Source: a virus (Duplodnaviria > Caudoviricetes). Taken from it: a DNA stretch of 52,749 nt. A program made the position numbers and the translations under genes. Below, one piece after another: positions 18,009 through 51,849 of the stretch (its first letter is position 1; every line of letters starts with the position of its first letter). Under the pieces are notes generated by a model, which did no database searches, was not told the origin of the DNA, and saw only the letters and a list, made by a program, of their open reading frames with translations. The stretch covers positions 1 through 52,749 of IMG/VR virus record IMGVR_UViG_3300044617_001342. One strand, 5' to 3'.

Positions 18009-18081
18009 TCCTCTGTAGCTCAGCTGGTAGAGCAGAGAGCTGTTAACTCTCGGGTCACTGGTTCAAATCCAGTCGGAGGAG
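18009..18081 (+). tRNA. trnN: tRNA-Asn(GTT), CCA not encoded
   Basis: TCCTCTG/CGGAGGA acceptor, GAGAG-CTGTTAA-CTCTC anticodon arm, GGTTCAAATCC T arm. Confidence 0.95.
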
Positions 18082-18087
18082 CATAAA

Positions 18088-18117
18088 ATAACCCCTAGGA
18101 GCAATCCTGGGGGTTAT
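18088..18117. terminator. Hairpin after tRNA-Asn, overlapping late promoter TATAAATA (18115-18122)
   Basis: ATAACCCCTAGGA-GCAA-TCCTGGGGGTTAT. Confidence 0.7.
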
Positions 18118-18127
18118 AAATATTGGT

Positions 18128-18991
18128 ATGCTATCATTTAAACAATATTTAATTCTAGAAAACGATGCTAAAACAGGTTCCTTTAACATGGGTCAATGGT
18201 CTAAAAATTATAAAGATGAGGTTGATAGAATTTATAAAGAATTATATCAAAAACATAAAAATGACATCGATCCACATATTTTACGTACCTCTTTTGGGGG
18301 AAACATGGAAGAATATATACGAACTAAATTTATGAATCCAGAAGAAAGGGAAATGGCTACACGGGCATCAAGTTATTACTATAGTCCATTGGATATAGAT
18401 GACCCGAAATATAATGATAGTCTTGTTAAACTAAGAAAGGATCCGGCTCCTCCAGATACTTTTAACAGACAATTATATACATCCCGAGAACCTGTTGATG
18501 TAATATTCGGTAAAACTCCAAATGAAAAACCTGTAATAGATTATACAAAACCTGTATTGGATCAAGATTTGTCTACGACATATCCTGCGCCCGGTGAAAT
18601 AGAACCAAGTACATCATCAATACAACAAAAAAATCTAAAAGGTGATCCAAATATAATAACAAACCCACCACAATCGGATGCATCTAGATGGCAGGCACGT
18701 CTAAGTATAGGCAAAGGCGTTGGAAAAGCTGTTCTAAAAGCTCTACCAGTCATCGGAACCGCAGCTTCTGTAGCAGCCATGACACAAAGAGCCCAAGCAG
18801 GAGATTATGTGGGAGCTGGATTGGAGGCAGCATCTGAACTAGCAGATTATATTCCGGGTGTTGGTACAGCTGCTTCTATGGGAATTCAAACATATCTTGC
18901 TGATAGAGATACACCAGAAGAAGAAAAGAAAAAACAAAAAAGTACTATGGCAAGACAAAATCTTAGAAGTCTTGGTCAGGGTATTCAATAA
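18128..18991 (+). CDS. Putative internal head protein (CTS-like leader; pre-toxin-like C-terminal motif)
   Basis: MLSFKQYLILE leader; late promoter; LPVIGTA..AGDYVGAGLEAA..IPGVGTA. Confidence 0.6.
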   Translation: MLSFKQYLILENDAKTGSFNMGQWSKNYKDEVDRIYKELYQKHKNDIDPHILRTSFGGNMEEYIRTKFMNPEEREMATRASSYYYSPLDIDDPKYNDSLVKLRKDPAPPDTFNRQLYTSREPVDVIFGKTPNEKPVIDYTKPVLDQDLSTTYPAPGEIEPSTSSIQQKNLKGDPNIITNPPQSDASRWQARLSIGKGVGKAVLKALPVIGTAASVAAMTQRAQAGDYVGAGLEAASELADYIPGVGTAASMGIQTYLADRDTPEEEKKKQKSTMARQNLRSLGQGIQ

Positions 18992-35796: not shown

Positions 35797-35824
35797 AGTA
35801 TACTCCTTATTTATGGTCTGTCAA
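35797..35824 (-). promoter_or_regulatory. sigma70-like promoter TTGACA-16-TATACT with nested CATAAATA
   Basis: Read directly; ATG 6 nt after -10. Confidence 0.75.
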
Positions 35825-35828
35825 ATAA

Positions 35829-35854
35829 CAAAACCCCCTTTGAAGGGGGTTTTG
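35829..35854 (-). terminator. Terminator hairpin after tmRNA
   Basis: CAAAACCCCCT-TTGA-AGGGGGTTTTG. Confidence 0.8.
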
Positions 35855-36170
35855 GGTCGATTCAGATGCGGGAGACCAAACCCCACTGCTTTAAGCAGCC
35901 ATTGCCATATAGTTGGCAATTATTTTTGCAACTGTTTATTTACGACACTTGTTACCCGTGTCGGGTATCTCCTTCTTCATTACTTTGCGCCAATCGATTC
36001 CTTTCGACCCCGGTGACCCGAAGCCTAGGACTTCGGGAAATGCCCCGCTGCTACGAGGACTTAATTCGCCGTTTTCAGAGGATTGCAGATTCTCTGACTT
36101 AGGCTAATGGAGTCGGGGGGATTCGAACCCCCGTCTTGTACGCATTTCAATCCAATATCAACAATACCAT
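35855..36170 (-). ncRNA. ssrA: Circularly permuted (two-piece) tmRNA
   Basis: Acceptor piece ends GACGGGGGTTCGAATCCCCCCGACTCCA (36108); coding piece starts GGGGTCGAAAGGAATCGA (36011); G3-U70 pair; pk1; tag ANYMAMAA* at 35917-35891; outer ends approximate. Confidence 0.9.
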
Positions 36171-36180
36171 TTTTATTTAG

Positions 36181-36263
36181 TGCGAGCGGAAGGATTCGAA
36201 CCTTCGTAGACATAAGCCAGCAGATTTACAGTCTGCCCTCGTTGACCGCTTGAGTACACTCGC
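36181..36263 (-). tRNA. trnY: tRNA-Tyr(GTA), CCA not encoded
   Basis: GCGAGTG/CGCTCGC acceptor, GCAGA-CTGTAAA-TCTGC, long variable arm. Confidence 0.95.
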
Positions 36264-38183: not shown

Positions 38184-38255
38184 TGCGGCTGGAGGGAATC
38201 GAACCCTCGTGACGGGTTTGGAAAACCCGCGTAATGGCCGTTATACGACAGCCGC
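38184..38255 (-). tRNA. trnG: tRNA-Gly(TCC), CCA not encoded
   Basis: GCGGCTG/CAGCCGC acceptor, CGGGT-TTTCCAA-ACCCG. Confidence 0.93.
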
Positions 38256-38287
38256 AGATTAAATTAGTATAATACATAAATATTAGT

Positions 38288-38992
38288 ATGCAAGAACTAA
38301 ATGAAGGAAATATTTTTGATATTCAAGATGTTTTTGGTGCAAATTTAAATGCATCACAAATGGGTATTAAAAAACAAAAGAATGCTGTCAAATCTCAATT
38401 ATTTGATTATTTGAAAAGAAATAAAGTTCAAAATCCAGAACAAGTTATTAAACAAACTTTTGGTGATTTGGTGGAAAAAGCGGGTGGTGGTATGGGTGTA
38501 GGTGAGGCTGGTTTTGGTCCACCAGAAAACGTTGGTGATGCGTTGCCATTCTTAGATCCTTCAAATAAAACAGGTGCGGAAGTCGTAGTGGTTGCAAATA
38601 AAAATGGAAAAGCATATACATCTCCTTCTTCTGGATTTGGTATGGGTTTTGCCTTGGATCCAATGTTGGTTCCCAATGTAAGTCAATTTGTTAATTTTCA
38701 TGCCGATAAAGGTGATCAAGGAGCTGTAAGTGATTCTTTTGAACAAGAAAGATTAGAAGATACAGATACTCCAGAAGAATTGTCACATATTACATGGCAA
38801 AAAATGAATAATGCTGTTGCGAATTATGTTTATAAAAATTTAAAACAGACTCTTCAACAGTATCATGCTTACTTGCCAGATGAAATGTATCAGAATCAAT
38901 CTGGGACTCCCGCAATAAATTCACATCATTATGATCCATATTCTAGACAAGTATATATGCCTAAGAAATTTAATAGCGAACCTCAAATATAA
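38288..38992 (+). CDS. Hypothetical late protein
   Basis: CATAAATA 38275-38282; MQELNE start. Confidence 0.6.
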   Translation: MQELNEGNIFDIQDVFGANLNASQMGIKKQKNAVKSQLFDYLKRNKVQNPEQVIKQTFGDLVEKAGGGMGVGEAGFGPPENVGDALPFLDPSNKTGAEVVVVANKNGKAYTSPSSGFGMGFALDPMLVPNVSQFVNFHADKGDQGAVSDSFEQERLEDTDTPEELSHITWQKMNNAVANYVYKNLKQTLQQYHAYLPDEMYQNQSGTPAINSHHYDPYSRQVYMPKKFNSEPQI

Positions 38993-39010
38993 ATAAATTA
39001 AAAGGACACC

Positions 39011-39358
39011 ATGAATCACATCACAAATTATTATAAAAACAAATGCGAAATTTTGAATGAACAACTCAATTCATTGCAAAATACAATCAATACATTACTT
39101 ACAGAAAAATCAAGAGGATTTGATGTTGCTCAAGAGCAACAAAACCTTCTACATCCTCCTAATTGGTACAGGAATCGTGGATTACCAAATCCATGGGATG
39201 CAATGGATCCAAAACAACGTTCCAGAGAATTGCAACGCCTTTTAGATTATTGGAGCTCAATGGATATCGGAGCACCGGGTTTACAAACCGTGCCTAACAT
39301 GCCTTTCCTTAACCCCAGACCAGCAGAATTTTCTATTGGTGAACGTTTACATTTATAA
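39011..39358 (+). CDS. Late protein with MNHITNYYKN leader
   Basis: TATAAATA 38988-38995, AAGGA. Confidence 0.65.
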   Translation: MNHITNYYKNKCEILNEQLNSLQNTINTLLTEKSRGFDVAQEQQNLLHPPNWYRNRGLPNPWDAMDPKQRSRELQRLLDYWSSMDIGAPGLQTVPNMPFLNPRPAEFSIGERLHL

Positions 39359-39366
39359 TTTAAAAA

Positions 39367-39543
39367 TTAATTTTTACGGAAGAACTCATCAAACTTTTTG
39401 GTGAGTTCTTCCCTTTTTTTAGTATATTGATTATAATCTTTTTGACTCTCTTTACCATCGGTCTCAAGTCTTCCCAATTTATACATTACTTGGCCAAACT
39501 CATAAATTGCATTTTCAAGTTCTTTGTTTGATATACTAAACAT
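39367..39543 (-). CDS. 58-aa hypothetical protein (not in ORF track)
   Basis: MFSISNKELENAIYEFGQVMYKLGRLE..; after TTGTTT-16-TATAAT (39578-39551). Confidence 0.55.
   Translation of the reverse strand: MFSISNKELENAIYEFGQVMYKLGRLETDGKESQKDYNQYTKKREELTKKFDEFFRKN
39378..39420 (+). terminator. Intrinsic terminator
   Basis: GGAAGAACTCATCA..TGGTGAGTTCTTCC followed by C-TTTTTTT. Confidence 0.7.
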
Positions 39544-39603
39544 GATGTATATTATACATCCATTTTAAGTAAAAACAAATATTATAAATAGTTTAAGAGT
39601 ATA

Positions 39604-39984
39604 ATGAGAAAACAATTTTTATCTTTTAAAGAATTTTTAAATGAAGCATTGGCTTTGGTTGGACCTCCCGGTGGACCAGGAATGCCACAACAGGGGATGC
39701 CTCCGGGTGGTATGCCTCCGATGCCAAAAGGCAAAGGAAAAAAGATGCCAATGCAACCTCAACAAGATCCGTTGAAGCCTCAAAATTATCAAGGATTTAC
39801 TAATAGCCCCGAAGAAGAAGCAGACTTAAGAAATCTTATTGCAACTCAATATGATGATCCAGACACAATGGAACAAGAACAAGCACAAGATGCTTCATGG
39901 CAGACTCTGAATACAGCACAACAAAATGCATCTCAAAGAGCATTAGAACAATTAAAAGCCAAACAAGGAATGGTAACAAGATAA
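39604..39984 (+). CDS. Pro/Gly/Gln-rich late protein with CTS-like leader
   Basis: TATAAATA 39583-39590; LSFKEFLNE. Confidence 0.65.
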   Translation: MRKQFLSFKEFLNEALALVGPPGGPGMPQQGMPPGGMPPMPKGKGKKMPMQPQQDPLKPQNYQGFTNSPEEEADLRNLIATQYDDPDTMEQEQAQDASWQTLNTAQQNASQRALEQLKAKQGMVTR

Positions 39985-39996
39985 AGGACAATAAAA

Positions 39997-40434
39997 ATGG
40001 CAAATTTTAAAAATAAAAAAGTATCAATCAATGAAGGTAGAAATGTAACTGACGGAAAGTTTACTTTTGGTGGATTTCCAAGAATTTTGAATGAAGTAAA
40101 ATATGATATTCCAGCTAAAGCTAGTGATATAGAAGGCGATCGTGGTGCTGTTGGAATTGACGAGTTTGAAGAGTTAATGAATAATAGATTTTCACATCCT
40201 TTGATGGCAGGACAAACAGAAAATGGTAAACGAGGAGTGCCCCCAGAAATTCGTGCTGAAGCTTTGATGCATATAAAAAAATTAAGGAACCATCCTCAAG
40301 GAAAAGTTGAAGGATATGGTAGTGATCATCCAATATATCAAGAAGCAAAAGCTGCACACGAATTTTTTATCACACATTTTCCAGCATTTGGCGTAGAAGA
40401 TCAAATTGCTCAAGATTATAACCTTTCTCAATAA
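39997..40434 (+). CDS. Hypothetical late protein
   Basis: AAGGA; INE and FGGFPRILNE motifs. Confidence 0.6.
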   Translation: MANFKNKKVSINEGRNVTDGKFTFGGFPRILNEVKYDIPAKASDIEGDRGAVGIDEFEELMNNRFSHPLMAGQTENGKRGVPPEIRAEALMHIKKLRNHPQGKVEGYGSDHPIYQEAKAAHEFFITHFPAFGVEDQIAQDYNLSQ

Positions 40435-40466
40435 ATAAACCCCTGTAAAGATCGCAAGGTCTTTCG

Positions 40467-40503
40467 ACCCCTTCTAATCTCTGCGCAGAAGGGGTTTTTC
40501 TTT
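40467..40503 (+). terminator. Terminator hairpin preceded by a GCAA-tetraloop hairpin
   Basis: ACCCCTTCT..AGAAGGGGT-TTTTCTTT. Confidence 0.65.
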
Positions 40504-40517
40504 CCATAAATAATTGT

Positions 40518-41378
40518 ATGATCAAGGCTGTAGGCGACAAATTCTATGTTATGGACTCCACAGGAAAGAAAGTTCTTGGAAAACATTCTTCCAAGAAGAA
40601 AGCAGTTGCACAGCTTCAAGCTATTGAGATATCAAAGCACGAAAGAAATGAATCCAGAATAATTAAATTTTCTGATTTTCTCAAAGAAGAACTGACATCG
40701 ACTCTCCAATATCACCAAGATCTAAATCCAACTATTTGGGATGGATTTGAATTAAAAGATGATGTAAGAAATAAACTTATTGAAATTGGACGTACATGGG
40801 CTACATGGGCCAACATTCCAGTTGAAGCAGTTAAAGATATGATTCTTGTTGGTGGTAATGCAAACTATAATTACACACCACAATCAGATATCGATCTACA
40901 CATTCTTGTAGATGTAGATGCAATTCCAAATTGCCCGGAATTCATAGATGACTATCTTAAAGACAAGAAACAACTTTGGTCATTGACACATGATATTAAA
41001 ATTCGTGGCCATGATGTAGAGATATATGCTCAAGATATGAACGATGGTTTTACCAAAGATCAAGGTGTCTTTAGTTTAACTGATAACAATTGGATTGCTG
41101 AACCGGTTAATCAAGAAATAAATCTTGATAATCCACATATTCTGAAGAAAGTTCAAGAATACATTGAAAAGATTGATTCTCTTATTGCTTCGAATGCTGA
41201 AGAAGAATCATTCCAAAAACTCAAAGAGAAGTTTAAAGATATGCGTTCAACTGATATAAAGAAATACGGTGAGTTTTCACACGGAAATCTCATATTCAAA
41301 GAACTTCGCAATCTTGGTTATCTTGACAAGATGAATAGTTATATCAAAACAAAACAAGATAAGGAATTAAGTTTATGA
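40518..41378 (+). CDS. Pol-beta-superfamily nucleotidyltransferase-like protein
   Basis: LVGGNANYNY..SDIDLHILVD, DVEIYAQD; CATAAATA 40505-40512; internal KFSDFLKEE. Confidence 0.7.
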   Translation: MIKAVGDKFYVMDSTGKKVLGKHSSKKKAVAQLQAIEISKHERNESRIIKFSDFLKEELTSTLQYHQDLNPTIWDGFELKDDVRNKLIEIGRTWATWANIPVEAVKDMILVGGNANYNYTPQSDIDLHILVDVDAIPNCPEFIDDYLKDKKQLWSLTHDIKIRGHDVEIYAQDMNDGFTKDQGVFSLTDNNWIAEPVNQEINLDNPHILKKVQEYIEKIDSLIASNAEEESFQKLKEKFKDMRSTDIKKYGEFSHGNLIFKELRNLGYLDKMNSYIKTKQDKELSL

Positions 41379-42178
41379 AATCATTTAAACAATTTTTATT
41401 TGAAAGATTAGAAGATGATATTGAAAGAACAAAAACTGTTCCAGTTACTGTTAAACCTAAACAATCACTTCCGCCATCAAGAAAAAATTATCCAGATACC
41501 GAAGAAGGTACACAGCAATGGAAAACGGACGTAAATTCTTGGGTTCCCCAAGCACGCAAAGATGCTGAATCAATGACAAATAATGCAGAGTCCGCTGCCA
41601 ACACTTTAGGCAAAATAGAAACTGGATTAAAAGTTGCCGATGCTGTTACTGACACAGCACTCTCTGCTGGAGCGGTTGCTGTTCCTGGTGTTGGCACAGC
41701 ACTAAATGCTGCAGTAAAAGGAGTAAAAGGTGGAATAAACGCCTCACAAGGAAATTATGTAGCAACTGGTTTAAATGCTGTTGATGCAGTATTGCCTGTG
41801 GCCGGACAACTACAAACTGCTGGAAAAGTTGCTTCAACAATTGGTAGTTTAGTAAAATCTCCAGTTACTGCTGTTTTAGAAAAAGGAGCAGAAGCTTTAG
41901 GAGTTACAAAAGCTTTAGCGGGAGAAACTGTAAAAGCGATTCCAGCAGCAACAGAAGTTTTAAGTAATACTGGTGCTCAATTGGCTAGAAATGTTGCTGC
42001 AAAAGCTGGTGTAAAAGTTGCATCAAGATCAGCCGAGAGCCCTATCAAATCTACGGTGTCTGATGTAATGGGTTCTATGGTTTCAGATACAGATACTTCC
42101 AAAACATCCAAATCACCATCAACAACGCTAGCATCGTCTCATAATTCTAAAGGACGAACAAATATGCCAAAAATGTGA
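41375..42178 (+). CDS. Putative internal head protein (CTS-like leader; pre-toxin-like motif)
   Basis: MKSFKQFLFE; AVPGVGTA..QGNYVATGLNAVDAVLP. Confidence 0.65.
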   Translation: MKSFKQFLFERLEDDIERTKTVPVTVKPKQSLPPSRKNYPDTEEGTQQWKTDVNSWVPQARKDAESMTNNAESAANTLGKIETGLKVADAVTDTALSAGAVAVPGVGTALNAAVKGVKGGINASQGNYVATGLNAVDAVLPVAGQLQTAGKVASTIGSLVKSPVTAVLEKGAEALGVTKALAGETVKAIPAATEVLSNTGAQLARNVAAKAGVKVASRSAESPIKSTVSDVMGSMVSDTDTSKTSKSPSTTLASSHNSKGRTNMPKM

Positions 42179-42191
42179 TATGTTAAAACAA

Positions 42192-42443
42192 TTATCTTTC
42201 AACCATCTCAACCCAATCTTGATGGATCACATGGTTTCCACCATAGCCATCTTTGATCTTGCTGACATCCCACCAGATGGTATCACCAACCTGAATGTCT
42301 TCGGTGAGTTTGTTTCCAATAGCCAAAACCTTTGCAGGAATAATCTTTGATTTAGATTTTTCCTGATAAATGATTCCTGCTTCAGATGTTTTTTCTCCAC
42401 CAATCGACGCTTTTGCAACAATCCATTTTCCTACTGGTTTCAT
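42192..42443 (-). CDS. GroES-like co-chaperonin (gp31 analogue)
   Basis: MKPVGKWIV..EKTSEAGII..AKVLAIG..IQVGDTI. Confidence 0.75.
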   Translation of the reverse strand: MKPVGKWIVAKASIGGEKTSEAGIIYQEKSKSKIIPAKVLAIGNKLTEDIQVGDTIWWDVSKIKDGYGGNHVIHQDWVEMVER

Positions 42444-42444
42444 A

Positions 42445-42555
42445 TTATTTCTTTCTTGAATCACTAATCATGCACCAGATGCCATAACCGATTAACCAAA
42501 AACCAGGAATGGATGCAAGAGCACATATAGACAATACTATAATTTTTTCAGTCAT
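42445..42555 (-). CDS. 36-aa single-TM protein (not in ORF track)
   Basis: MTEKIIVLSICALASIPGFWLIGYGIWCMISDSRKK fills the gap between tRNA-Gln and GroES. Confidence 0.45.
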   Translation of the reverse strand: MTEKIIVLSICALASIPGFWLIGYGIWCMISDSRKK

Positions 42556-42557
42556 AA

Positions 42558-42628
42558 TTCCTCAGATAGGATTCGAACCTATACAAAGAGATCCAAAGTC
42601 TCTGGTGCTACCGTTACACTACCGAGGA
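42558..42628 (-). tRNA. trnQ: tRNA-Gln(TTG), CCA not encoded
   Basis: TCCTCGG/CTGAGGA acceptor, AGAGA-CTTTGGA-TCTCT. Confidence 0.92.
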
Positions 42629-43162
42629 GTGAATTTTAGCGCAATAATTATTCATGATAATTGAACTTGCGCAACCAACATTGATGCTTCTTACAGATCC
42701 GTACTGCGGGATATACAAGACATCATCACACATACTTAGCACATCCATAGGAACCCCAATCTGTTCCTGACCAAAGATCATAATATAATGCACATTTGGA
42801 TCAAAGTCAAATGCATTTACATCCTTGGCTTCAGGAATGTTGTCTATTCCAATTAGTCGGACTGACCCCGATTCTTGCTTGGATTCAAAATAAGATCCAA
42901 GATTATCAATGCTTCGTACATGATGAAAATTGGTATAATGGTGAGTACCAACAGTACCACGACGATCATATTTTTTATGCCCATAGATTACTACTTCTTT
43001 CGCAAGAAACGCATTAGCATTTCTAATGACCGTGGCGATATTAAAGTCATTGCCAATATTGCAACACACAACACTGAAGTTATGTCTTTTAGTATTAAGA
43101 TCAGCCCTGATTGCATCGTCGTTCCAATAATGGTAATGATCAATAATATTACGAGTTTCCAT
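42614..43162 (-). CDS. SpoU/TrmH-family RNA 2'-O-methyltransferase
   Basis: NIATVIRNANAF, IFGQEQIG, IPQYGSVRSINVGCA SPOUT motifs. Confidence 0.88.
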   Translation of the reverse strand: METRNIIDHYHYWNDDAIRADLNTKRHNFSVVCCNIGNDFNIATVIRNANAFLAKEVVIYGHKKYDRRGTVGTHHYTNFHHVRSIDNLGSYFESKQESGSVRLIGIDNIPEAKDVNAFDFDPNVHYIMIFGQEQIGVPMDVLSMCDDVLYIPQYGSVRSINVGCASSIIMNNYCAKIHSSVV

Positions 43163-43164
43163 GA

Positions 43165-43509
43165 TTAAAGCTTGGTAATAAGAACACCAACAATAGCAAG
43201 AATTCCACCAATCAGAGTCTTCATATCCATCTTTACATTATACATGAAAAGAGGAACTAAAATGGTAATCATGCTGACTACGACATCCCAGATCACGTTT
43301 ATGACAAATATATCTTTCTTTTCATCATAAGTTCTAACAAGATATAACCACATTGCAGTTGCAACCACTGCTGCGATTATTGAAATGCTATATGCCAGTA
43401 CGGGTCTGTTGTCAAAGTAAGTATCATAACTGATTACAGAAAATGCTCCGTAACAAATGATTACCAATATAATTGTTATTGTGAATAATAGCATATTACG
43501 AGTTTCCAT
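43165..43509 (-). CDS. Four-TM membrane protein (SMR/DMT-like)
   Basis: Four hydrophobic segments; flanked by a 17-bp direct repeat. Confidence 0.6.
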   Translation of the reverse strand: METRNMLLFTITIILVIICYGAFSVISYDTYFDNRPVLAYSISIIAAVVATAMWLYLVRTYDEKKDIFVINVIWDVVVSMITILVPLFMYNVKMDMKTLIGGILAIVGVLITKL

Positions 43510-43951
43510 TATCCACAACCTCATATTCATTTTTAATACGAACTTCTTCGCAGAACGTATGGTAATGCATTCCAGATCGGCAAAGATTTCCGGGCTTTCC
43601 GGTTACCTCACAAATCTTGTATGAATTGTCTTCTGCCGTATCAATCAACTTTCGAACATCATGATACAGTTTGTCATTGTCCGTGTTCATCATGTAATAG
43701 AACCGAAGACCACCAAACTTTTCTTTGATCTGAAGAAGCATGAACATAGGCTGTTCAGGATCTTCCTTGATATTCTTTCTCTCTTCATCAAGAAGAACAG
43801 AAAGATCGGAGCACAATTTATCAACAAGAATATACCAACCACTTGGAAGATCATATGAAGAACTATGAACCATACCCTTGAAAACAGAAGGATAATCTTC
43901 AATCAACTTATCGATTGGATCTGCATACTCTTTTAGTTCAATAGGATTCAT
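43496..43951 (-). CDS. Conserved phage hypothetical protein
   Basis: GWY.LV..QIKEKFGGLRFY..CEVTGKPG..TFC motif. Confidence 0.7.
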   Translation of the reverse strand: MNPIELKEYADPIDKLIEDYPSVFKGMVHSSSYDLPSGWYILVDKLCSDLSVLLDEERKNIKEDPEQPMFMLLQIKEKFGGLRFYYMMNTDNDKLYHDVRKLIDTAEDNSYKICEVTGKPGNLCRSGMHYHTFCEEVRIKNEYEVVDNGNS

Positions 43952-44148
43952 TCGTCTTTTCCTTTCCCCCAACCAGTTCCATGGTTGTAAGCGGTGATTA
44001 TAGATTCCTTAGTCTCCAGTGCACAGTTACGCTGTATGCGCAACACACGAATTTCCTCTGCAGCATCTCTGCAAACTTCAAATACTTCTCGGTTTGCATC
44101 GTGCCACTTATCGGCCATGTTTCTCAAACGTAGTTCAATGTCTTTCAT
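43948..44148 (-). CDS. Hypothetical protein
   Basis: DIELRLR..DAAEEIRVLR; ATGA coupling. Confidence 0.6.
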   Translation of the reverse strand: MKDIELRLRNMADKWHDANREVFEVCRDAAEEIRVLRIQRNCALETKESIITAYNHGTGWGKGKDE

Positions 44149-44156
44149 AAGTTTAG

Positions 44157-44231
44157 TGATCCTGACGGGATTCGAACCCGTGTTGTGGCCTTGAAAGGGC
44201 CGCGTCCTTGACCAGACTAGACGACAGGACC
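44157..44231 (-). tRNA. trnE: tRNA-Glu(TTC), CCA not encoded
   Basis: GGTCCTG/CAGGATC acceptor, GGCC-CTTTCAA-GGCC. Confidence 0.92.
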
Positions 44232-44237
44232 GTTGTA

Positions 44238-44402
44238 TTAGTCAAACTTTGCGCGAATCTCGTTAGCAAGGAAGGCGACCATCATACCAATGATGCTGCC
44301 AATCAATGCACCTTCGTAGTTGTAATGGTATGCCATGCCAATCATGTTAATTAAGGCAAGAATAGTTAGCGGAATGGTAAGTTTGTTTATTACAGTTTTC
44401 AT
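44238..44402 (-). CDS. 54-aa two-TM protein (not in ORF track)
   Basis: MKTVINKLTIPLTILALINMIGMAYHYNYEGALIGSIIGMMVAFLANEIRAKFD; leaderless after TTGACA-16-TATAAT. Confidence 0.65.
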   Translation of the reverse strand: MKTVINKLTIPLTILALINMIGMAYHYNYEGALIGSIIGMMVAFLANEIRAKFD

Positions 44403-44408
44403 GATTGT

Positions 44409-44445
44409 ATTATACATGATATATACGTTTTGTCAAATATAAATA
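44409..44445. promoter_or_regulatory. Divergent pair: TTGACA-16-TATAAT (-) and late TATAAATA (+)
   Basis: Read directly. Confidence 0.8.
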
Positions 44446-44463
44446 TAGCAGAAGGTACATAAT

Positions 44464-45171
44464 ATGAACTACGTAACAAACTATTACAAAAATTTATCAG
44501 AACAACTTCAACAAAGAGTACAAATTTTATCTGAAGCATTGGCTACCTATGGCAATGTAAATAGAAATCAAGATGAAATTGGTTATGCTCCACAAGCATT
44601 TAGCGGCCAACAACTAGGTCAAATGCTTGGTAGCGGTAATGTACATGGTGCTCAAAACTATGTAAATTCTTATGCTCCAATGCAAGTTGCTGGTCAAGCC
44701 TCTTACCGTATGGCTCCATCTCCCCGTTCAAACCGTGGTCGTCGTGGTGCAGAATCTATGGGTGACAGCCAAGGTGGTTTTGTTGCTGGCGATTATAATG
44801 GAGATGGCATCGTAGACGGTGCTGATCTTGGTCTCGCACTAGGTTCAGGTCAAAATCCTTCTAACGTTGTTAACAACTACTCAACTGGTATGCAAGTTGG
44901 TGGTTATGCCAATCGTTCTATGATGGGTCCTAGCCGTGGTAGTAATCGCGGTATGGGGGCTGAAGACGCTGGTAGCCAAGGTAATCCCTTCGGTGTAGAT
45001 GGTCAAGCAGGTGGTTACGGTGGTGAAGCATCTAGCCAAGGTGGCTATGATGGTGCAGTTCTAGGTCGACTTTTAAGCAATGGTGATATGAATGCCGTTA
45101 ATAATTACCTATCACAATTTGCTCGTAAACCAGGTGTCTCTGGCAAAAATCAAAGAAAGCGTAAAGCTTAA
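44464..45171 (+). CDS. Gly-rich late protein with MNYVTNYYKN leader and dockerin/EF-hand-like motif
   Basis: GDYNGDGIVDGADLGLALG at 44788-44844. Confidence 0.7.
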   Translation: MNYVTNYYKNLSEQLQQRVQILSEALATYGNVNRNQDEIGYAPQAFSGQQLGQMLGSGNVHGAQNYVNSYAPMQVAGQASYRMAPSPRSNRGRRGAESMGDSQGGFVAGDYNGDGIVDGADLGLALGSGQNPSNVVNNYSTGMQVGGYANRSMMGPSRGSNRGMGAEDAGSQGNPFGVDGQAGGYGGEASSQGGYDGAVLGRLLSNGDMNAVNNYLSQFARKPGVSGKNQRKRKA

Positions 45172-45193
45172 TAATTAAAAATTAAATTTTTAT

Positions 45194-45228
45194 AGAAAAC
45201 CCCTTTTTAACGAAGGGGTTTTTCTTTT
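45194..45228. terminator. Bidirectional terminator
   Basis: AAAACCCCTT..AAGGGGTTTT. Confidence 0.7.
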
Positions 45229-45461
45229 ATATAAATTAATATTTCTGCAATTGCCAACGCAATCACTGGCAGAAAAGTAGCAACAGCAAAGCACCAAAAT
45301 GGTACGGTATGTTCTACCATTAGACTTCACATCCAGTCTTTTTTTTATTTGTAAGAAGATACTTTATCATTCCTTCGATCATTCCAAAAATCATCAAAGG
45401 AAATATAATCATAAAACAAAGAGTAAGTACAGATACTCTTTTAAATTCTTCAATGAAAAGA

Positions 45462-46220
45462 TCAATGGATCGCATAGGTGTCCAGTTTCAAAGATCCATC
45501 TGAATCTTCATAAAGAAATGTGCAGTTGTCTTTTTCTGTCCAGCAGCCACAGTTGGCATATGTAATATTATTTACAGTATACAACTTTGGTTCGTGCAAA
45601 TGACCACAGACAATGCCATCATATTTCTTTTCTTTGGCGTATTTAATAACAACGCTTTCAAAGCTTTCGATGAACTGAGCTGCTCTCTTTACTTTAATCT
45701 TCACATACTTTGAGATAGACCAGTATCTCATTCCCATCATTCTTCTGCACCAATTGAACCAATCATTGATTTCCAAGATCAGTTCATATGCATAGTCACC
45801 TAGTTTGTAGATATAGGAACTGACAGGAAACTTTGTGAGAAAGTCAAACTGATGTCCATGAAGAATAAGAAACTTTTTTCCTGAAGAAGTAGTATATTCT
45901 TCTCGTTCACTTAAACTGATATTACCAAAGATATGATGTCCTGAAAACTTTGCCATGAACTCATCATGGTTTCCATAGATGTAATGAATCTTTGTTCCCT
46001 TGCGAGAAAGTTTGAGCAATCTTTCAATCACTTCCATATGGTGATTTTGTTTTTCGGCATTCATTGAGAATGCCTGTTTGAATCTCCATATATCGATAAT
46101 ATCTCCCACAAGGAAGATATTATCAAATTCATTATTTTTTAAAAATGCAATAAGAGGCTTTGTCTTTGCTTTCTTGGAAGCCAAATGAAAGTCTGAAAGA
46201 AAGACAGTCTTGTAATGCAT
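45462..46220 (-). CDS. LpxH-like (UDP-2,3-diacylglucosamine hydrolase family) metallophosphoesterase
   Basis: SDFHL, LVGDIID, GNHD, LHGHQFD, CGHLH, YANCGCW. Confidence 0.85.
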   Translation of the reverse strand: MHYKTVFLSDFHLASKKAKTKPLIAFLKNNEFDNIFLVGDIIDIWRFKQAFSMNAEKQNHHMEVIERLLKLSRKGTKIHYIYGNHDEFMAKFSGHHIFGNISLSEREEYTTSSGKKFLILHGHQFDFLTKFPVSSYIYKLGDYAYELILEINDWFNWCRRMMGMRYWSISKYVKIKVKRAAQFIESFESVVIKYAKEKKYDGIVCGHLHEPKLYTVNNITYANCGCWTEKDNCTFLYEDSDGSLKLDTYAIH

Positions 46221-46229
46221 TTCTAATAT

Positions 46230-46667
46230 TTATCGCCGTCTAGAGAAGGCAACCAAAGTTGCCATCGCCACAAGCAAACCCATTCCCGGAGCAGGAACGG
46301 GAGGACGCACAGGCCCATCGTAAGGAATGCTTTCAGTCGGAAATTTTATACACACGCTCTCAATACGATCATAGTGCATGGGAATGAACATATCCTGATC
46401 TACAGTCTGCACAGTCATCACAAGGTTTCCTTCACGATAGATCTTGTGAACCCAAAAGCCATCAAAAGAACCCATGAAAAAATTATGAGAAACCTGTGGG
46501 TAGTTGGAAACTGTTGGCTGTACGATTGCTTCACCAATAGGCTCCGTAATGGTTAGGGTATTGTCAAAGGTTAGCGGCTTGGTATAGGACACTTCAACAT
46601 ACATCGAACCTTCGTTGATGGAGGTTGAGAAAATATTGCCCTGTCCGTAAATCAAAGACACGCTCAT
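46230..46667 (-). CDS. PEP-CTERM-type (VPAPG) sorting-signal protein
   Basis: C-terminus VPAPG + hydrophobic helix + RRR. Confidence 0.7.
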   Translation of the reverse strand: MSVSLIYGQGNIFSTSINEGSMYVEVSYTKPLTFDNTLTITEPIGEAIVQPTVSNYPQVSHNFFMGSFDGFWVHKIYREGNLVMTVQTVDQDMFIPMHYDRIESVCIKFPTESIPYDGPVRPPVPAPGMGLLVAMATLVAFSRRR

Positions 46668-46981
46668 TAGATCCCGTCCATTTCATTGTTATCATCGGGC
46701 GCAAAGAATCCCAATGCGTTGTCATTGTCTGCCTTATCGTCCAAAGCCTGTTGCTGCTTCATCTTCTCCATGCGCTCCGATGTACGGAACTTCTTCATGA
46801 AGTCACACTTGCAATGGTCAAACTCACGGTCATCAGCGTGAATGAGAAGCCCGTCCCATTCATCGCACCAATGCCATCCATCGTCAAGTTCCTGTGCGGT
46901 CAGCATGACGCTCTCATCGCCATCAAAGGGCTGCATAAGGTAGTACCAACGCTCTTGGGTCATTTTGTGTTTGTCGCTCAC
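46667..46981 (-). CDS. Hypothetical protein
   Basis: GWHWCDEWDGL..C.C; coupled ORF. Confidence 0.6.
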   Translation of the reverse strand: MSDKHKMTQERWYYLMQPFDGDESVMLTAQELDDGWHWCDEWDGLLIHADDREFDHCKCDFMKKFRTSERMEKMKQQQALDDKADNDNALGFFAPDDNNEMDGI

Positions 46982-47232
46982 TTGCCGTCCTCCTTAAAGC
47001 AGTCCCACTTTCGCAGTTCTGCGTATCCCTTTGGGGAAATTACACAACAACGATCTAGACTTTTAAGAGAGCATACCTCTTGTCTTGCCTCATCACGTTC
47101 GGCACGGAGTTCCTTGATATGCTCAACTACCTGATGAAAAACATCTTCTGTCACGCTGAACTGCATGAACCTTGACTTATATGCCAAGAAGCGATCAAGA
47201 ATATCTACACCATTTGAATCCACATCAGGCAT
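46978..47232 (-). CDS. Hypothetical protein
   Basis: LRAERDEARQEVC..WDCF; AAGGA upstream. Confidence 0.6.
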   Translation of the reverse strand: MPDVDSNGVDILDRFLAYKSRFMQFSVTEDVFHQVVEHIKELRAERDEARQEVCSLKSLDRCCVISPKGYAELRKWDCFKEDGK

Positions 47233-47259
47233 TGGTGTTCCTTTTCTTGGTAGGCATGT

Positions 47260-47490
47260 TTATTTCTTTTCTGAATGTTTGATATAGTCGATTTCGTGCT
47301 TGAGGAAGTCATCTTCAACCACATAGATGTTATGCGAGATCTTGTCCAACATATCTTCAATCTCAACCTGCGAGATGGTTCCATCTCTGACATCATTACG
47401 CAAAAGATCAATCTGTTCAATGACAATAGAAAGTTTGTCCATTGCTTTGAAGAAACGCTTCGGGCTCTTGGTCTTGGTCTTGGTAGCCAT
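47260..47490 (-). CDS. Hypothetical protein
   Basis: AAGGA upstream; packed operon. Confidence 0.55.
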   Translation of the reverse strand: MATKTKTKSPKRFFKAMDKLSIVIEQIDLLRNDVRDGTISQVEIEDMLDKISHNIYVVEDDFLKHEIDYIKHSEKK

Positions 47491-47491
47491 A

Positions 47492-47761
47492 TTAGTCCTT
47501 GTTGTATTCCTGCTTGGTCATGCGAGTGATGCTATGAATATAGCCGTAACGACGACGAGCGCAAGCAACTATGCGCTTGTATTCCTTGGCGGTGCAGTAG
47601 AAGTGCAGGTCGAATGACTTGCCTTCCAACATCATACCGGACCCAACGAACATTCGGCTGTAACGTTTTTCCAGTCCACGGGAAATTTCAAAATAGTTTC
47701 CACGGTTGTACTGGAAGAAGTAGTGGTACTTGGTTTCTTTCTTGGTCTTGAGCATTGTCAT
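47492..47761 (-). CDS. Hypothetical basic protein
   Basis: GAGG upstream of ATG 47761. Confidence 0.55.
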   Translation of the reverse strand: MTMLKTKKETKYHYFFQYNRGNYFEISRGLEKRYSRMFVGSGMMLEGKSFDLHFYCTAKEYKRIVACARRRYGYIHSITRMTKQEYNKD

Positions 47762-47766
47762 GTTCC

Positions 47767-48015
47767 TCAATCTTTTGTGGGTTGGACTTTGTTCTTCTTG
47801 GAAGACTTGTATATCTGCTGTTCTCCCATCCATTCAGATGCTTTTACAAGCCATGCTGCAAACTTAAATGCCATGATGGGATCGTAAATCTGTGCCTTGG
47901 CAGGCGTGTAGGTTGTCAAATTTTTATTGTAGATTTTGATACCTCTTTCGCCGTTGCCATATTCATAGCATTCGGCAATAAGGTTTTTGTTTTTGAATGG
48001 TGCTGGGGTTTTCAT
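47767..48015 (-). CDS. Hypothetical protein, first gene of early operon
   Basis: TTGACT-16-TATAAT at 48052-48025. Confidence 0.55.
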   Translation of the reverse strand: MKTPAPFKNKNLIAECYEYGNGERGIKIYNKNLTTYTPAKAQIYDPIMAFKFAAWLVKASEWMGEQQIYKSSKKNKVQPTKD

Positions 48016-48118
48016 TGTGCCCATATTATACCCCTTACCCAGCCAAAGTCAAACAAATACAAGTGATTTAAACAGACGTATAAATATTTTTACCAACTAA
48101 AACTAAAGGGATGATACT

Positions 48119-49531
48119 ATGCATAATCAAGAAAATTTAGAAGAAGGATACTTTGGAGATTTAGCAAAGAATATTATAGGAAGACCAGTCTATGCCAAAG
48201 CTTCAAAGGTTGCACAAAAAGCTTCTGATTATGTTCGTGCTGCAGCCGATAAATTAAGTGGCGTTTCTCAATCATTGGGAAAAAAACCAGAAATATTATC
48301 ACCCACAAAATCTTGGCGAGTTCCAACAGATGCCGAAGAAGGACGTAGGCAGGTTGCAGAACATCACGCCCGTACTGCGTATTTCTTAGTACCCGAAATA
48401 CAAAAACATGCAAAACGTGCTGATTGGGAAATGGCATATGCAAACAGAACGTCAATTCCAACTCCCAGACAAATAGAAGAAATTCGTGATGATTTAACCA
48501 AACAAAGAACAGAGACAGCAGGAAAGAAAAAACCAAAGGCAGTAACTGACAGGGATATTCAAAAAGCATGGGAAGAAAAAGCTAAGCCGCAACAACAAAA
48601 ACAAGCAGTAATTTCATCATTGCTTGGTAGAGCCCATAATCTTCTTTCGGGATCTGTATTGAATGCCATAGATTCTGTATACGAAGGAAAACCATCTCAT
48701 TCAGGTGTTCATTTGAATACAGGTTTTAGTGGAAATTTTGCAGATAAAGATCATATAGGTGTTCAGTATGCAAAAGCATGGGAATCTGCAGGTGAAGCCC
48801 AAGCCTCAATGCCTAAACCAGAAGATCTGTTTGGAGAGCATACTCACCATGTAGGAGAAGGACATGAGTGGATTATTCATAAAGATAATATTGGTGACAG
48901 TCTTGCCAAAGATGTTGCAAAAGCAAACAAACAAGCAAGAGCAGCATATGCAGATGCCGTAAAAATTGCTACAGGCCATGTGGAAAATTTAAACGCAAGA
49001 AGAGCCGAACAAAGAGCAACCAATGCTGCGGGGACACAACTTAAATTGGTTGAGGCATATAATAATCACCATGTAAAATTGGACTACGGGATGATCTACG
49101 GTGGATTTCCCAGCAAAAAATCAAAATTTTTAACTGAAGTAGCGGATACCGGTGATGGCGGACTGCAGCCCGGAAATCCTAACCAACCAAATATCCCAGT
49201 TCCACCACCCGGTGGAGACTACCCACACCCACCCGGATTACCTGCGTTCTGGTATAGACCCGGAACTGGTATTGGATTTAATGGTGACAGCGAAATGCCC
49301 GGCACCCCACCCGGACCAAATGATCCTCGTTGGAGGGAATGGGATAGACAATGGCAAGAAAGTAATCCTAAACCTACAAGACAACCTAATGAATCTGATA
49401 AAGATTTTAGAAAAAGAGTAGATGATTATCGTAAGTTATTGGAACAATATAGAATTTGGAAATACCAATACTTAAAATGGTGGCAACGAACTTATGGCCC
49501 AAATGCTAATCCGCAACAACCAACTGTATAA
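48119..49531 (+). CDS. Hypothetical late protein with Pro/Trp-rich C-terminus
   Basis: TATAAATA 48079-48086; LEE, LVE, YGGFP..FLTE sites. Confidence 0.65.
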   Translation: MHNQENLEEGYFGDLAKNIIGRPVYAKASKVAQKASDYVRAAADKLSGVSQSLGKKPEILSPTKSWRVPTDAEEGRRQVAEHHARTAYFLVPEIQKHAKRADWEMAYANRTSIPTPRQIEEIRDDLTKQRTETAGKKKPKAVTDRDIQKAWEEKAKPQQQKQAVISSLLGRAHNLLSGSVLNAIDSVYEGKPSHSGVHLNTGFSGNFADKDHIGVQYAKAWESAGEAQASMPKPEDLFGEHTHHVGEGHEWIIHKDNIGDSLAKDVAKANKQARAAYADAVKIATGHVENLNARRAEQRATNAAGTQLKLVEAYNNHHVKLDYGMIYGGFPSKKSKFLTEVADTGDGGLQPGNPNQPNIPVPPPGGDYPHPPGLPAFWYRPGTGIGFNGDSEMPGTPPGPNDPRWREWDRQWQESNPKPTRQPNESDKDFRKRVDDYRKLLEQYRIWKYQYLKWWQRTYGPNANPQQPTV

Positions 49532-49536
49532 TTAAA

Positions 49537-49941
49537 ATGAAAAGTTTTAAACAATTTTTAATTGAATCAACCGATCTCTACGAAGAGAAAGATGCCTGCT
49601 ACTACAAGATCATGAAGTCATACGGCAAGTGGTCAGCAAGAGCAGCCCAAGCCACCGCCAAGTGCCGTAAGGGCAAAGGAAAGGTGCGTAAGAGCAAAGA
49701 AGGGGCTAACCTTAAGCGTTGGGGGGCAGAGAAGTGGAAGGACACCAAGTCAGGTAAAGCCTGTGGTGCAGGAGGCAAGAATGAGTATTGCAGACCCACA
49801 AAGCGAGTCAGCAAAGAAACCCCCAAGACAGCCAGCGAGATGTCATCAAAAGAATTGAAGAGCAAGAAGGCCGAGAAGTCAAGAGTCGGAATGCATGGGG
49901 CATCAGGAAAGAAAGTTTCCCCAACAAAGAGAAAACAATGA
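49537..49941 (+). CDS. Basic Cys-containing protein with CTS-like leader
   Basis: MKSFKQFLIE; KDACY.K..W.SA.A..KCRK; LKRW..EKW.D..C.P.KRVS..TPKT. Confidence 0.7.
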   Translation: MKSFKQFLIESTDLYEEKDACYYKIMKSYGKWSARAAQATAKCRKGKGKVRKSKEGANLKRWGAEKWKDTKSGKACGAGGKNEYCRPTKRVSKETPKTASEMSSKELKSKKAEKSRVGMHGASGKKVSPTKRKQ

Positions 49942-50357
49942 ACCACATAACAAATTATTACAAAAATTTATGCGAACAACTAGAAGCCCAAATTAGATTT
50001 CTTGAAGAGAAGATCAAGGAAAAGAAACTTGACAAAGTGGGCAAAGAGGACAAAGATATCAACAATGATGGCAAGGTGAACAAGAGTGACAAGTATCTAG
50101 CCAATCGCCGTAAGAAAATAGCCATGGCAATGAAAAACAAGAAAATTGTCAAAGAGGCAACTTCTACGCAAGTAGAGGGAGATTACGAAGGAGAGATGGC
50201 AAGAGGGGAACTTGAGTACACAATTCAAAATGCTCAAGAAATTTTAAATTCTCTCAATGATGGGGATGAATTAGAAGCATGGGTACAGAGCAAAATCACC
50301 AAGGCTGCTGATTATATTTCTACAGTAAGAGATTACATGGCTGGTAGAAAAGGATAA
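49938..50357 (+). CDS. Late protein with MNHITNYYKN leader and T4-like head modules
   Basis: LDKVGKEDKDINNDG..YL.NRRK; EGEMA..LEAWVQSKITKAADY. Confidence 0.7.
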   Translation: MNHITNYYKNLCEQLEAQIRFLEEKIKEKKLDKVGKEDKDINNDGKVNKSDKYLANRRKKIAMAMKNKKIVKEATSTQVEGDYEGEMARGELEYTIQNAQEILNSLNDGDELEAWVQSKITKAADYISTVRDYMAGRKG

Positions 50358-50364
50358 GAAATAC

Positions 50365-50904
50365 TCAACGCTCCCAATAGACTGTCTCGCCTCTTTCGTA
50401 AAATTTTAAATTATTCTTGGATTCTTCTTTCACGAAGTGCTTATCCGTCACCGTGAAGTGATTATTGGGAACAAGGGCAAAGTAGCCACAGTCAAGCGTT
50501 ATCAGACTCAAGGGCTTGTGTTCGGCTGGGTAACGGGAATATCCATCCCCCCAGTCAATTATAATACCTGTATGTCTACCATTCAACCCCGTATGAAAGA
50601 CACTCACAGGTAGCCCTTCCAAGTAGGTTGTCATAAAAGTTTCAATATTATTGCCCATTCCACCCCAAGGTTGAATATTATTATTTTCGCCTGAATCAAA
50701 GACAGCAGTAGTGGACAAGGCACATAACGGAAGCCCAGACCAATGCGCACCAGATTCAAGAAGCACATGGCAACATATCAACTGACCCGGACGAGAATAC
50801 ACACCATGCCATATAGCAGGAGTATATCCATCAGGCATTTTAGGCCCAAGAAATGAATTTTTAACATTTACATAAAAATGGTATGGTAAAGAAACATTTC
50901 TCAT
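50365..50904 (-). CDS. Conserved phage hypothetical protein
   Basis: LESGAHWSGLPLCAL, EHK..LDCGYFALVPNN; TTGTCT-16-TATAAT at 50940-50913. Confidence 0.7.
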   Translation of the reverse strand: MRNVSLPYHFYVNVKNSFLGPKMPDGYTPAIWHGVYSRPGQLICCHVLLESGAHWSGLPLCALSTTAVFDSGENNNIQPWGGMGNNIETFMTTYLEGLPVSVFHTGLNGRHTGIIIDWGDGYSRYPAEHKPLSLITLDCGYFALVPNNHFTVTDKHFVKEESKNNLKFYERGETVYWER

Positions 50905-50961
50905 AGTATGTAATTATATACCATAATAGCAATAAGACAAGCAATCAATAAATATTATACC

Positions 50962-51153
50962 ATGAAGAAATTTAAAGAATTTTTAGAAGATTATGATGTA
51001 TATCTTGATATGCCCAAAAAGAAGAAAAAGAAAAGATCAAAGAAGAAGGCAAAGAAATATACATTACCATATTATGGGTTTAGTCTTTATGGATATAATA
51101 ACAATAATACAGATGGAGAGAGTGGTGGAGGAGATGGTGGTGGAGGAGAATGA
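50962..51153 (+). CDS. Small late protein with CTS-like leader, Lys tract and Gly tail
   Basis: AATAAATA 50947-50954; MKKFKEFLE. Confidence 0.6.
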   Translation: MKKFKEFLEDYDVYLDMPKKKKKKRSKKKAKKYTLPYYGFSLYGYNNNNTDGESGGGDGGGGE

Positions 51154-51849
51154 GTTTTGTGGGTAAAGATGGGGGAGAGTGGGAGTGTGTGGGGTAAAGA
51201 ATTTTTAAGAATATTTTGAAAGATTTGAGTTAGAGACCCACCCTCAAACACCCTCTAATCCCATCTATACGCCTCTATACGGCCTTCCAAGGCACAAAAC
51301 GACCCTAGAGACCTCCAATACAACCAAGAGCCTATAAAGGATCGTAGCCTGTCAAGCAATACTTGACAGGTTTTTAACAATTTTTAAGAAATTTTAGCAA
51401 TTTTTGAATCCCGTCCCTCTCAGGACCCTCAAACAATTACAATTTTATTAAATTATTGACAATCCGTGTACAATATCTCTCTATTGCGTTCTAGAGCTCC
51501 AACCAGTCCAGGTGTATCCAGTCCGCCTTTCTGGATCCCGTCCAGAGCTCTAGGGGACCTGCGTCCCATCCGTATCATGTCCAGGATCCCCCCTCTGTCA
51601 CCCCCCTGATAGTAGCCATTAATATTTTCAGGAATTTTTGAAACCCGTCCAGAATCCCGTCCGCTAATATTTTCAAATTTATTTGAAACTTTGAAGAGTC
51701 CGATAACCATGGCACCGGCCAGACCGATAACCGAGAGTCCGATAAGTATGGCCACGATAACCATAAACGTCCGATAACCCCCTGCCCACCCTCTCACGAT
51801 TATAGGACACAGGGGCTGGGGGGTTATCGGTCGCATGAACAGTCCTATA

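Follow-up and report, generated by a model that had tools for sequence, protein, structure and literature searches.

An N-terminal leader shared by unrelated late proteins of uncultured freshwater T4-like phages, a candidate cleavable head-loading propeptide

Why do three otherwise dissimilar proteins of one phage begin with the same peptide? We analyzed IMG/VR record IMGVR_UViG_3300044617_001342, an uncultured T4-like phage genome whose entire 52,749 bases are referred to below as the window; three of its genes, starting at 39011, 44464, and 49938 (leader genes 1, 2, and 3; Table 1), encode a common N-terminal leader followed by a different cargo part. T4-type DNA polymerase, UvsX, gp41-type helicase, gp61-type primase, and ribonucleotide reductase were also encoded in the window. 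The polymerase had about 42% identity with that of the nearest cultured phages, the cyanomyoviruses. The DNA of the window was present in lake-water and freshwater metagenome runs; no RNA runs were among the sequencing runs listed for it. The internal proteins of T-even phages are diverse, and the capsid-targeting sequence (CTS) is their one common part (as outlined in PMC3012670); in T4 it comprises the first 10 residues of IPIII (as given in PMC9026906). The reading that we favor, with a probability of roughly 55%, is that the new leader would be a cleavable head-targeting propeptide of the T4 kind, longer than the CTS and of new sequence. As far as its sequence tells, it behaves like a head-loading propeptide of this kind in every testable respect.

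All three open reading frames (ORFs) start with MN[HY][IV]TNYYKN, and a six-frame motif scan of the whole 52.7 kb gave three copies of the leader. In pairwise BLAST of the three proteins, likeness was confined to residues 1–26/33, with E values of 4e-6 to 3e-9. The best match between cargo parts (E 0.023 over 27 residues) was not significant and corresponded to a calcium-loop-like motif of the 44464 and 49938 proteins. The three proteins are not full-length paralogues, because their likeness is limited to the leader and their cargo parts are not significantly alike. A first-pass annotation of the window had described three dispersed late genes with a common N-terminal leader and then a short coiled coil that ends in LTE, LSE, or LEE and precedes unrelated cargo. 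All three starts were exactly as it had quoted them, and the three terminal motifs were located at the residues given in Table 1. That the genes are late agrees with late-promoter-type boxes (TATAAATA) directly upstream of 39011 and 44464 and with the place of 49938 as the third gene in a plus-strand run behind the box at 48079. The cargo is unrelated by BLAST, but the short calcium-loop motif is common to two of the three proteins.

The leader was also searched for beyond the window. A strict back-translated pattern gave five more genes on four viral contigs, with a different cargo in each, and a profile of 45 columns was made from eight leaders. A hidden Markov model (HMM) scan of the genome and of viral databases, which the first-pass annotation had proposed, found 187 proteins at E ≤ 0.01 in a word-indexed collection; in a set of 1.84 billion cluster representatives, 670 proteins matched at E ≤ 0.001. 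The match began at residue 1 in 144 of the 150 best representatives, and nearly all of the 154 proteins taken from loci had Met as the first residue of the model. The leader occurs far beyond chance. Every named member was annotated as ‘hypothetical’. We failed to find a description of this leader in the full-text literature on T4-type capsid targeting, internal proteins, prohead proteases, and cyanophage or metagenome phages. The principle of the CTS is already known; the sequence of this leader, compared with what is published there, is new.

The leader is 24–33 residues long with the consensus start M[ND][YH][ILV]TNYYKN. Y8, K9, and N10 were invariant in the 120 listed proteins, L15 was present in 119 and L22 in 116 of them, and Cys at position 12 in only 27; conservation declines beyond about residue 31. 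Selection acts on the leader peptide, because its near-invariant residues use many synonymous codons: at the near-invariant Leu positions 4, 11, 15, and 22 all six Leu codons occur, and the other near-invariant residues are likewise encoded by many. A leader-like stretch was also seen inside the protein of the gene adjoining leader gene 1 upstream (38288–38992, plus strand), where NYVYKNLKQTLQQ at residues 179–191 resembles the leader core; the leader HMM gave it no more than about 1 bit, and the same stretch is present in the L005 homologue.

The cargo is as varied as the leader is constant: at least 28 BLAST-unrelated cargo groups were found among the 120 listed leader proteins. Cargo had a median length of 152 amino acids and a median isoelectric point of 8.6, was rich in Gly, Ala, and Pro, and was nearly free of Cys. 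No Pfam family was found in 121 of 131 diverse members; nine had EF-hand, dockerin, or FG-GAP calcium-loop motifs, and one gave a sub-threshold match to PspB. Within the window, the 44464 cargo is Gly-rich and basic with dockerin/EF-hand-like calcium-loop motifs, while the 49938 cargo has a calcium-loop motif and then a conserved C-terminal helical module, which is also found in cyanophages. For the 39011 cargo just six family members were found, all six with the leader. Pfam and PHROGs gave nothing for the three window proteins, save PHROG matches to the middle of the 49938 protein.

The terminal motifs of the leader are of the type recognized by the T4 prohead protease: gp21 cleaves after L/I-X-E, as first seen at a Glu-Ala bond (according to PMC9026906). 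We counted [LI]xE in 332 non-redundant members, with 200 shuffles as the control. The Glu of this motif occupied leader position 13 in 90% of members, position 17 in 61%, position 23 in 27%, position 28 in 43%, and position 31 in 18%; at any single cargo position the value was 0.3%. A motif with its Glu at residues 20–45 was present in 325 of the 332 members versus 128 ± 9 (maximum 150) in the shuffles. Ala stood right after the last motif in 122 of these 325.

The strongest evidence for head loading is the swapping of leaders, as read from alignments of cargo homologues. Five genes of the window have CTS-like starts (Table 1), close to those in the T4 record NC_000866, where IPI starts with MKTFKEF and IPII and IPIII start with MKTYQEFIAE; two of the five lie behind TATAAATA boxes (at 18115 and 39583). 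Related contigs had 29 CTS-like genes in the regions flanking leader genes. For 4 of 30 CTS-like proteins, including AOV61865 of cyanophage S-WAM2, homologous cargo was found with the new leader in front. In the clearest case, L048 (MKKFKEFLRE...) and L063 (MHYLANYYKN...LTE...) have cargo with 80% identity over 129 residues, beginning just past L-x-E. A ParB-like fold had been guessed for this L048/L063 cargo and was rejected, having no Pfam support. In the 49938 family, P0285 (MKNFKKFLEEKIKAKKLD...) and P0070 (MDYLTNYYKNLSEQLEAQVKFLEEKVKAKKLD...) are collinear from LEE on. The C-terminal module of 49938 had 261 homologues, and leader types were counted in the 120 of them that were listed: 32 bore the new leader, 14 a T4-type CTS, 51 a leader of the MRFxS...LNES type, 15 one of the MxNPETIIRGIMxE type, and 8 other or truncated starts. 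Leader gene 1 offers no swap information, as all of its few cargo homologues have the leader.

Two further observations concern these modules. The C-terminal module of 49938 (GDYEGEM...EAWVQSKITKAADY; proteins P0296–P0369) stands behind leaders of four different types, all with L/I/M-x-E at the end. DUF6321 often comes after the module, which also occurs inside SSM2_109 of cyanophage S-SM2, between terminase genes. A 286-amino-acid nucleotidyltransferase-domain protein of the window (40518–41378, plus strand) has the CTS-like stretch IIKFSDFLKEE at about residues 48–58; the 46-residue N-terminal part before it matches another PHROG, an arrangement that could reflect a fusion or mark a processing site within the protein.

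Judged from their genes, the carriers of the leader are uncultured T4-like phages. By tblastn against 50,697 cultured phage records, no match was found for the 44464 protein, for P0058, or for the 35-residue leader; neither did megablast of 38200–50400 match any cultured phage. The 49938 protein matched cultured phages by its C-terminal module alone, in nine cyanophage records. Viral contigs contained 97 tblastn-confirmed relatives, of which the best 80, on 76 loci, formed the locus set. All 19 large carrier contigs searched had 1–7 leader genes each, often in tandem or head to head (this count leaves out one further contig, behind L070), and a gp21-type Peptidase_S77 was encoded in 14 of the 19. 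One carrier contig that was read through had the head genes in T4 order—portal, small core protein, gp21, a 267-amino-acid protein, an acidic gp22-like scaffold, and gp23—and the same head module was kept in 13 more contigs. In the carrier head modules, ILTE and HLxE were found near the N-terminus of the capsid protein, and gp21 starts with MKLITELTE. The carrier capsid protein was 53–54% identical to those of cyanomyoviruses. Between gp21 and gp22 lies a variable Gly/Ala-rich protein (L128 10030–10833, with homologues in L134, L140, and L141); it opens with a 14-residue stretch ending in LLE followed by Ala, a candidate head-module propeptide.

The leader genes also differed between close relatives. 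Contigs from four lake runs were aligned to the window at ≥85% likeness; they represent related phages, not necessarily the same strain. Each of the three leader genes was skipped or replaced in such contigs (Table 1). On the evidence of these alignments, the three leader genes are accessory cassettes.

The regular build of the leader suggests another use for it. As an uncleaved coiled-coil helix, it might dock late structural proteins to the outer virion (neck, whiskers, fibres, or capsid surface) or di- or trimerise them. This explanation, which we consider unlikely, finds its support in the spacing of hydrophobic residues at 4, 7/8, 11, 15, 19, 22, and 26 and in the AlphaFold2 model of the 49938 protein, which from a 24-row alignment (mean pLDDT, the per-residue confidence score, 50.6) predicts a single helix at residues 2–27 with a pLDDT of about 50–60; this model was too poor for a fold search. 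The only PDB matches of the leader were generic coiled coils (E 0.13–0.9). The dockerin/EF-hand calcium loops of several cargoes would likewise suggest exposed proteins, and the lateness of the genes suits structural ones. The swaps argue against such a helix: the same cargo bears a 10-residue T4-type CTS, unable to form this coiled coil, and the joint falls directly past L-x-E. The fixed positions of L/I-x-E, often with Ala next, are also at odds with an uncleaved helix, and the small, mostly basic cargoes are not fibre-like.

An address outside the virion is distinctly unlikely in our estimate. The leader would then direct late proteins to a membrane or a prohead assembly site without packaging, to a chaperone, or to timed degradation. 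It could be an amphipathic helix, and most cargo has no recognizable function, the Pfam result above included. Features of Sec, Tat, or lipoprotein signal peptides were not found in the leader: polar residues (N, Y, K, E, Q) make up its columns, hydrophobic ones come singly and at intervals, and there is no signal-like hydrophobic core of about 10 or more residues behind a charged N-region. The leader is moreover restricted to T4-like phage contigs; among cellular genomes of 185,579 species just two short contigs of metagenome-assembled genomes matched it. It is also exchanged with a sequence that matches the experimentally defined T4 CTS.

The promoters of the leader genes bear on a role in the nucleic acid itself. 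The window has 10 TATAAATA boxes versus 3.1 expected, and 44 of 110 leader genes have the box within the 60 nucleotides (nt) ahead of them, versus 33 of 531 other ORFs of ≥150 amino acids. TAAATA ends exactly 5 nt ahead of ATG in 67 of the 110 leader genes, compared with 68 of 915 ORFs that have no leader, and genes with this spacing (e.g., L110, L114, L116, and L124) have no ribosome site in between. With the geometry of T4 late promoters, transcripts of genes with the 5-nt spacing would begin at the A of ATG and so be leaderless late mRNAs. For 23 of the 110 leader genes, the preceding 80 nt contain no such box; some of these genes lie inside gene runs, as 49938 does. It is very improbable that the peptide is idle and the conservation serves the nucleic acid, either by joining promoter and start codon in one module for leaderless late mRNAs or as a homology patch for cassette exchange. 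The 5-nt spacing, the cassette behavior, and 36–48-nt leader-only matches linking otherwise different contigs might suggest such a role. Against it, the invariant residues use many synonymous codons (all six for Leu at four positions), the same spacing is found at ORFs without the leader, and the copies in the window have 15–18-nt mRNA leaders with AGGA-type ribosome sites. Two arrangements of these boxes were also observed: the window box at 18115–18122 has the 5-nt spacing to the ATG at 18128, and head-to-head pairs of leader genes about 40 bp apart have two back-to-back late-promoter-like boxes between them (L112 at G006 80386–80635, L111, L110, and L119).

We return to the cleavable head-targeting propeptide. 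In this mechanism, an uncultured clade of T4-like freshwater phages would use the leader to send late proteins, which are small and mostly basic, to the assembling head, where the target of the leader would probably be the scaffolding core. The gp21-type prohead protease would cut the leader off, and probably chop it up, at the L/I-x-E motifs; the cargo would remain in the capsid and perhaps be ejected into the next host. The leader and the T4 CTS would be interchangeable on the same cargo, making the leader a second, longer, sequence-unrelated version of the CTS. The first-pass annotation, which did not recognize the leader as the T4 CTS, had likewise proposed that it is a second addressing signal, perhaps a coiled-coil peptide docking to scaffold or portal. 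The N-terminal position, the diverse cargo, the lateness of the genes, the gp21-type protease of related contigs, the fixed L/I-x-E motifs, and the CTS swaps speak for an addressing signal; docking to scaffold or portal gained nothing from the comparison with gp22, whose similarity to the leader is not significant. A leader copied from a gp22 helix was accordingly rejected as a candidate: hhalign paired leader residues 5–20 with gp22 148–163 at P 0.036 and a probability of 1.4%, and when 1174 ORFs were ranked by HMM, the gp22 proteins came out at about 0 bits, at rank 187 and below.

Several points weigh against a head-loading propeptide. The sole recognizable cargo motifs are calcium loops of the dockerin/EF-hand type, more typical of exposed or extracellular proteins, and no known head-internal protein or enzyme was recognized among the cargoes by Pfam and PHROG. 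One of 25 cargoes of ≥281 amino acids had a peptidase/endolysin-like PHROG match, which Pfam, run on that cargo and on 13 of the other 24, did not confirm. The leader is 2–3 times as long as the CTS and conserved over 23 residues, which suggests a partner more specific than any known for the CTS. A Glu-rich heptad helix alone could yield periodic L-x-E, and the shuffle control leaves this possibility in. The PF03420 and PF07068 profiles for head genes matched nothing in the window or on four small carrier contigs, and the control genomes matched neither profile; because the window and these four fragments are without head genes, Peptidase_S77 included, the link to gp21 rests on related contigs. 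Finally, TATAAATA lies upstream of just 1 of 29 CTS-like genes versus 44 of 110 leader genes, and the T4 ip genes are mostly without the box too; because their promoters differ, the two leader classes are not equivalent in regulation.

A wider scheme, rather unlikely when all its parts are taken jointly, would have two parallel head-loading systems: a short T4-type CTS and a long, late-only, multi-site leader that would enter the scaffolding core as a helix during assembly, to be shredded afterwards by the protease. The two cargo sets might be sorted by time, place, or copy number in the capsid. Swappable leaders would let any small gene be recruited into the injected set, and in aquatic T4-like phages a single cargo family would use four or more types of leader for this.

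Among known systems, the T4 CTS is the closest to the leader. Both end in a gp21-type L/I-x-E motif, belong to genes that vary between relatives, and are exchanged with one another in the phages studied here. The leader differs in its length (24–33 residues versus 10), in having no sequence similarity to MKTYQEFIAE or MKTFKEF, a pattern with aromatic residues at 4 and 7, I/L at 8, and E at 10, in its predicted long helix with several L/I-x-E motifs versus one, and in its link to late promoters; TATAAATA is mostly missing from the T4 ip genes and from the CTS-like genes found here. Encapsulin cargo-loading peptides are similarly short portable tags that bring diverse cargo into an HK97-fold shell; they are usually C-terminal, remain uncleaved, and bind the shell protein of a bacterial compartment, not a virion. 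Like the CTS of IPI, IPII, and IPIII as presented in PMC3012670 and PMC9026906, the leader is strictly N-terminal on unrelated, small, mostly basic proteins of T4-like phages. The head propeptides of phiKZ, 201phi2-1, and SPN3US described in PMC9026906 are also longer, N-terminal, present on many head or ejection proteins, and processed by gp21-related proteases; they are cut after Glu at short motifs, and several redundant sites ensure their removal. As that source presents them, these giant-phage propeptides differ from the leader in not being one conserved portable sequence on unrelated cargo. The genomes of these giant phages are not T4-like in organisation.

Table 1. Leader genes, promoter-type boxes, CTS-like genes, and sites of population variation in the window
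Feature	Position	Strand	Description
Leader gene 1	39011..39358	+	115 amino acids; start MNHITNYYKNKCEILNEQL
Leader of gene 1	39011..39106	+	residues 1–32; terminal LTE at 30–32
Leader gene 2	44464..45171	+	235 amino acids; start MNYVTNYYKNLSEQLQQRV; relatives on L006, L007
Leader of gene 2	44464..44535	+	residues 1–24; terminal LSE at 22–24, then Ala
Leader gene 3	49938..50357	+	139 amino acids; start MNHITNYYKNLCEQLEAQI
Leader of gene 3	49938..50009	+	residues 1–24; terminal LEE at 22–24; start overlaps stop of preceding gene
Late-promoter-type box TATAAATA	38988..38995	+	15 nt upstream of gene 39011
Late-promoter-type box TATAAATA	44438..44445	+	18 nt upstream of gene 44464
Late-promoter-type box TATAAATA	48079..48086	+	heads gene run 48119–49531, 49537–49941, 49938–50357
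CTS-like starts	18128, 39604, 41375, 49537, 50962	+	MKSFKQFLFE, MKSFKQFLIE, MKKFKEFLED, ..FLSFKEFLNE, MLSFKQYLILE among five genes
Companion gene	49537..49941	+	CTS-like start MKSFKQFLIE; DUF5872
Protein without leader	48119..49531	+	470 amino acids; L078 homologue (49% identity over 354 amino acids) bears degenerate leader copy
Contig jump over gene 1	38184 to 40068
Contig jumps over gene 2	44302 to 45221; 44366 to 45277
Contig jump over gene 3	49934 to 50961		two runs
Contig replacement at gene 3	49942 to 51179		730 other letters in between

Other genes of the window were observed in passing. ARAGORN alone called a candidate permuted tmRNA-like gene at 35800–36198 (minus strand) with the tag ANYMAMAA; beside it stand five tRNA genes, at 18009, 36180, 38183, 42558, and 44156. 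A 90-amino-acid Cpn10/GroES-like protein (42192–42464, minus strand; Pfam E 2e-5) is possibly the counterpart of T4 gp31. The 145-amino-acid protein at 46230–46667 (minus strand) has a C-terminal Pro-rich stretch followed by a hydrophobic helix and RRR, a candidate sorting tail resembling the PEP-CTERM type.

Should the leader serve some purpose other than loading, the conservation of a 23-residue peptide on hundreds of unrelated phage proteins would still have to be explained. If the head-loading reading is true, the loading system of T4 takes address peptides that are quite unlike one another, which bears on the binding partner of the CTS, and the leader would provide a second, longer tag for loading foreign proteins into phage capsids. 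For a large group of T4-like lake phages that are uncultured, sequence would then tell which proteins are packaged and possibly injected, a set that spans 1–7 genes in each partial genome and cargo families in the hundreds. This cargo is mostly dark matter and varies among close relatives, as one would expect of proteins that, like T4 IPI, act in anti-defence or host takeover.

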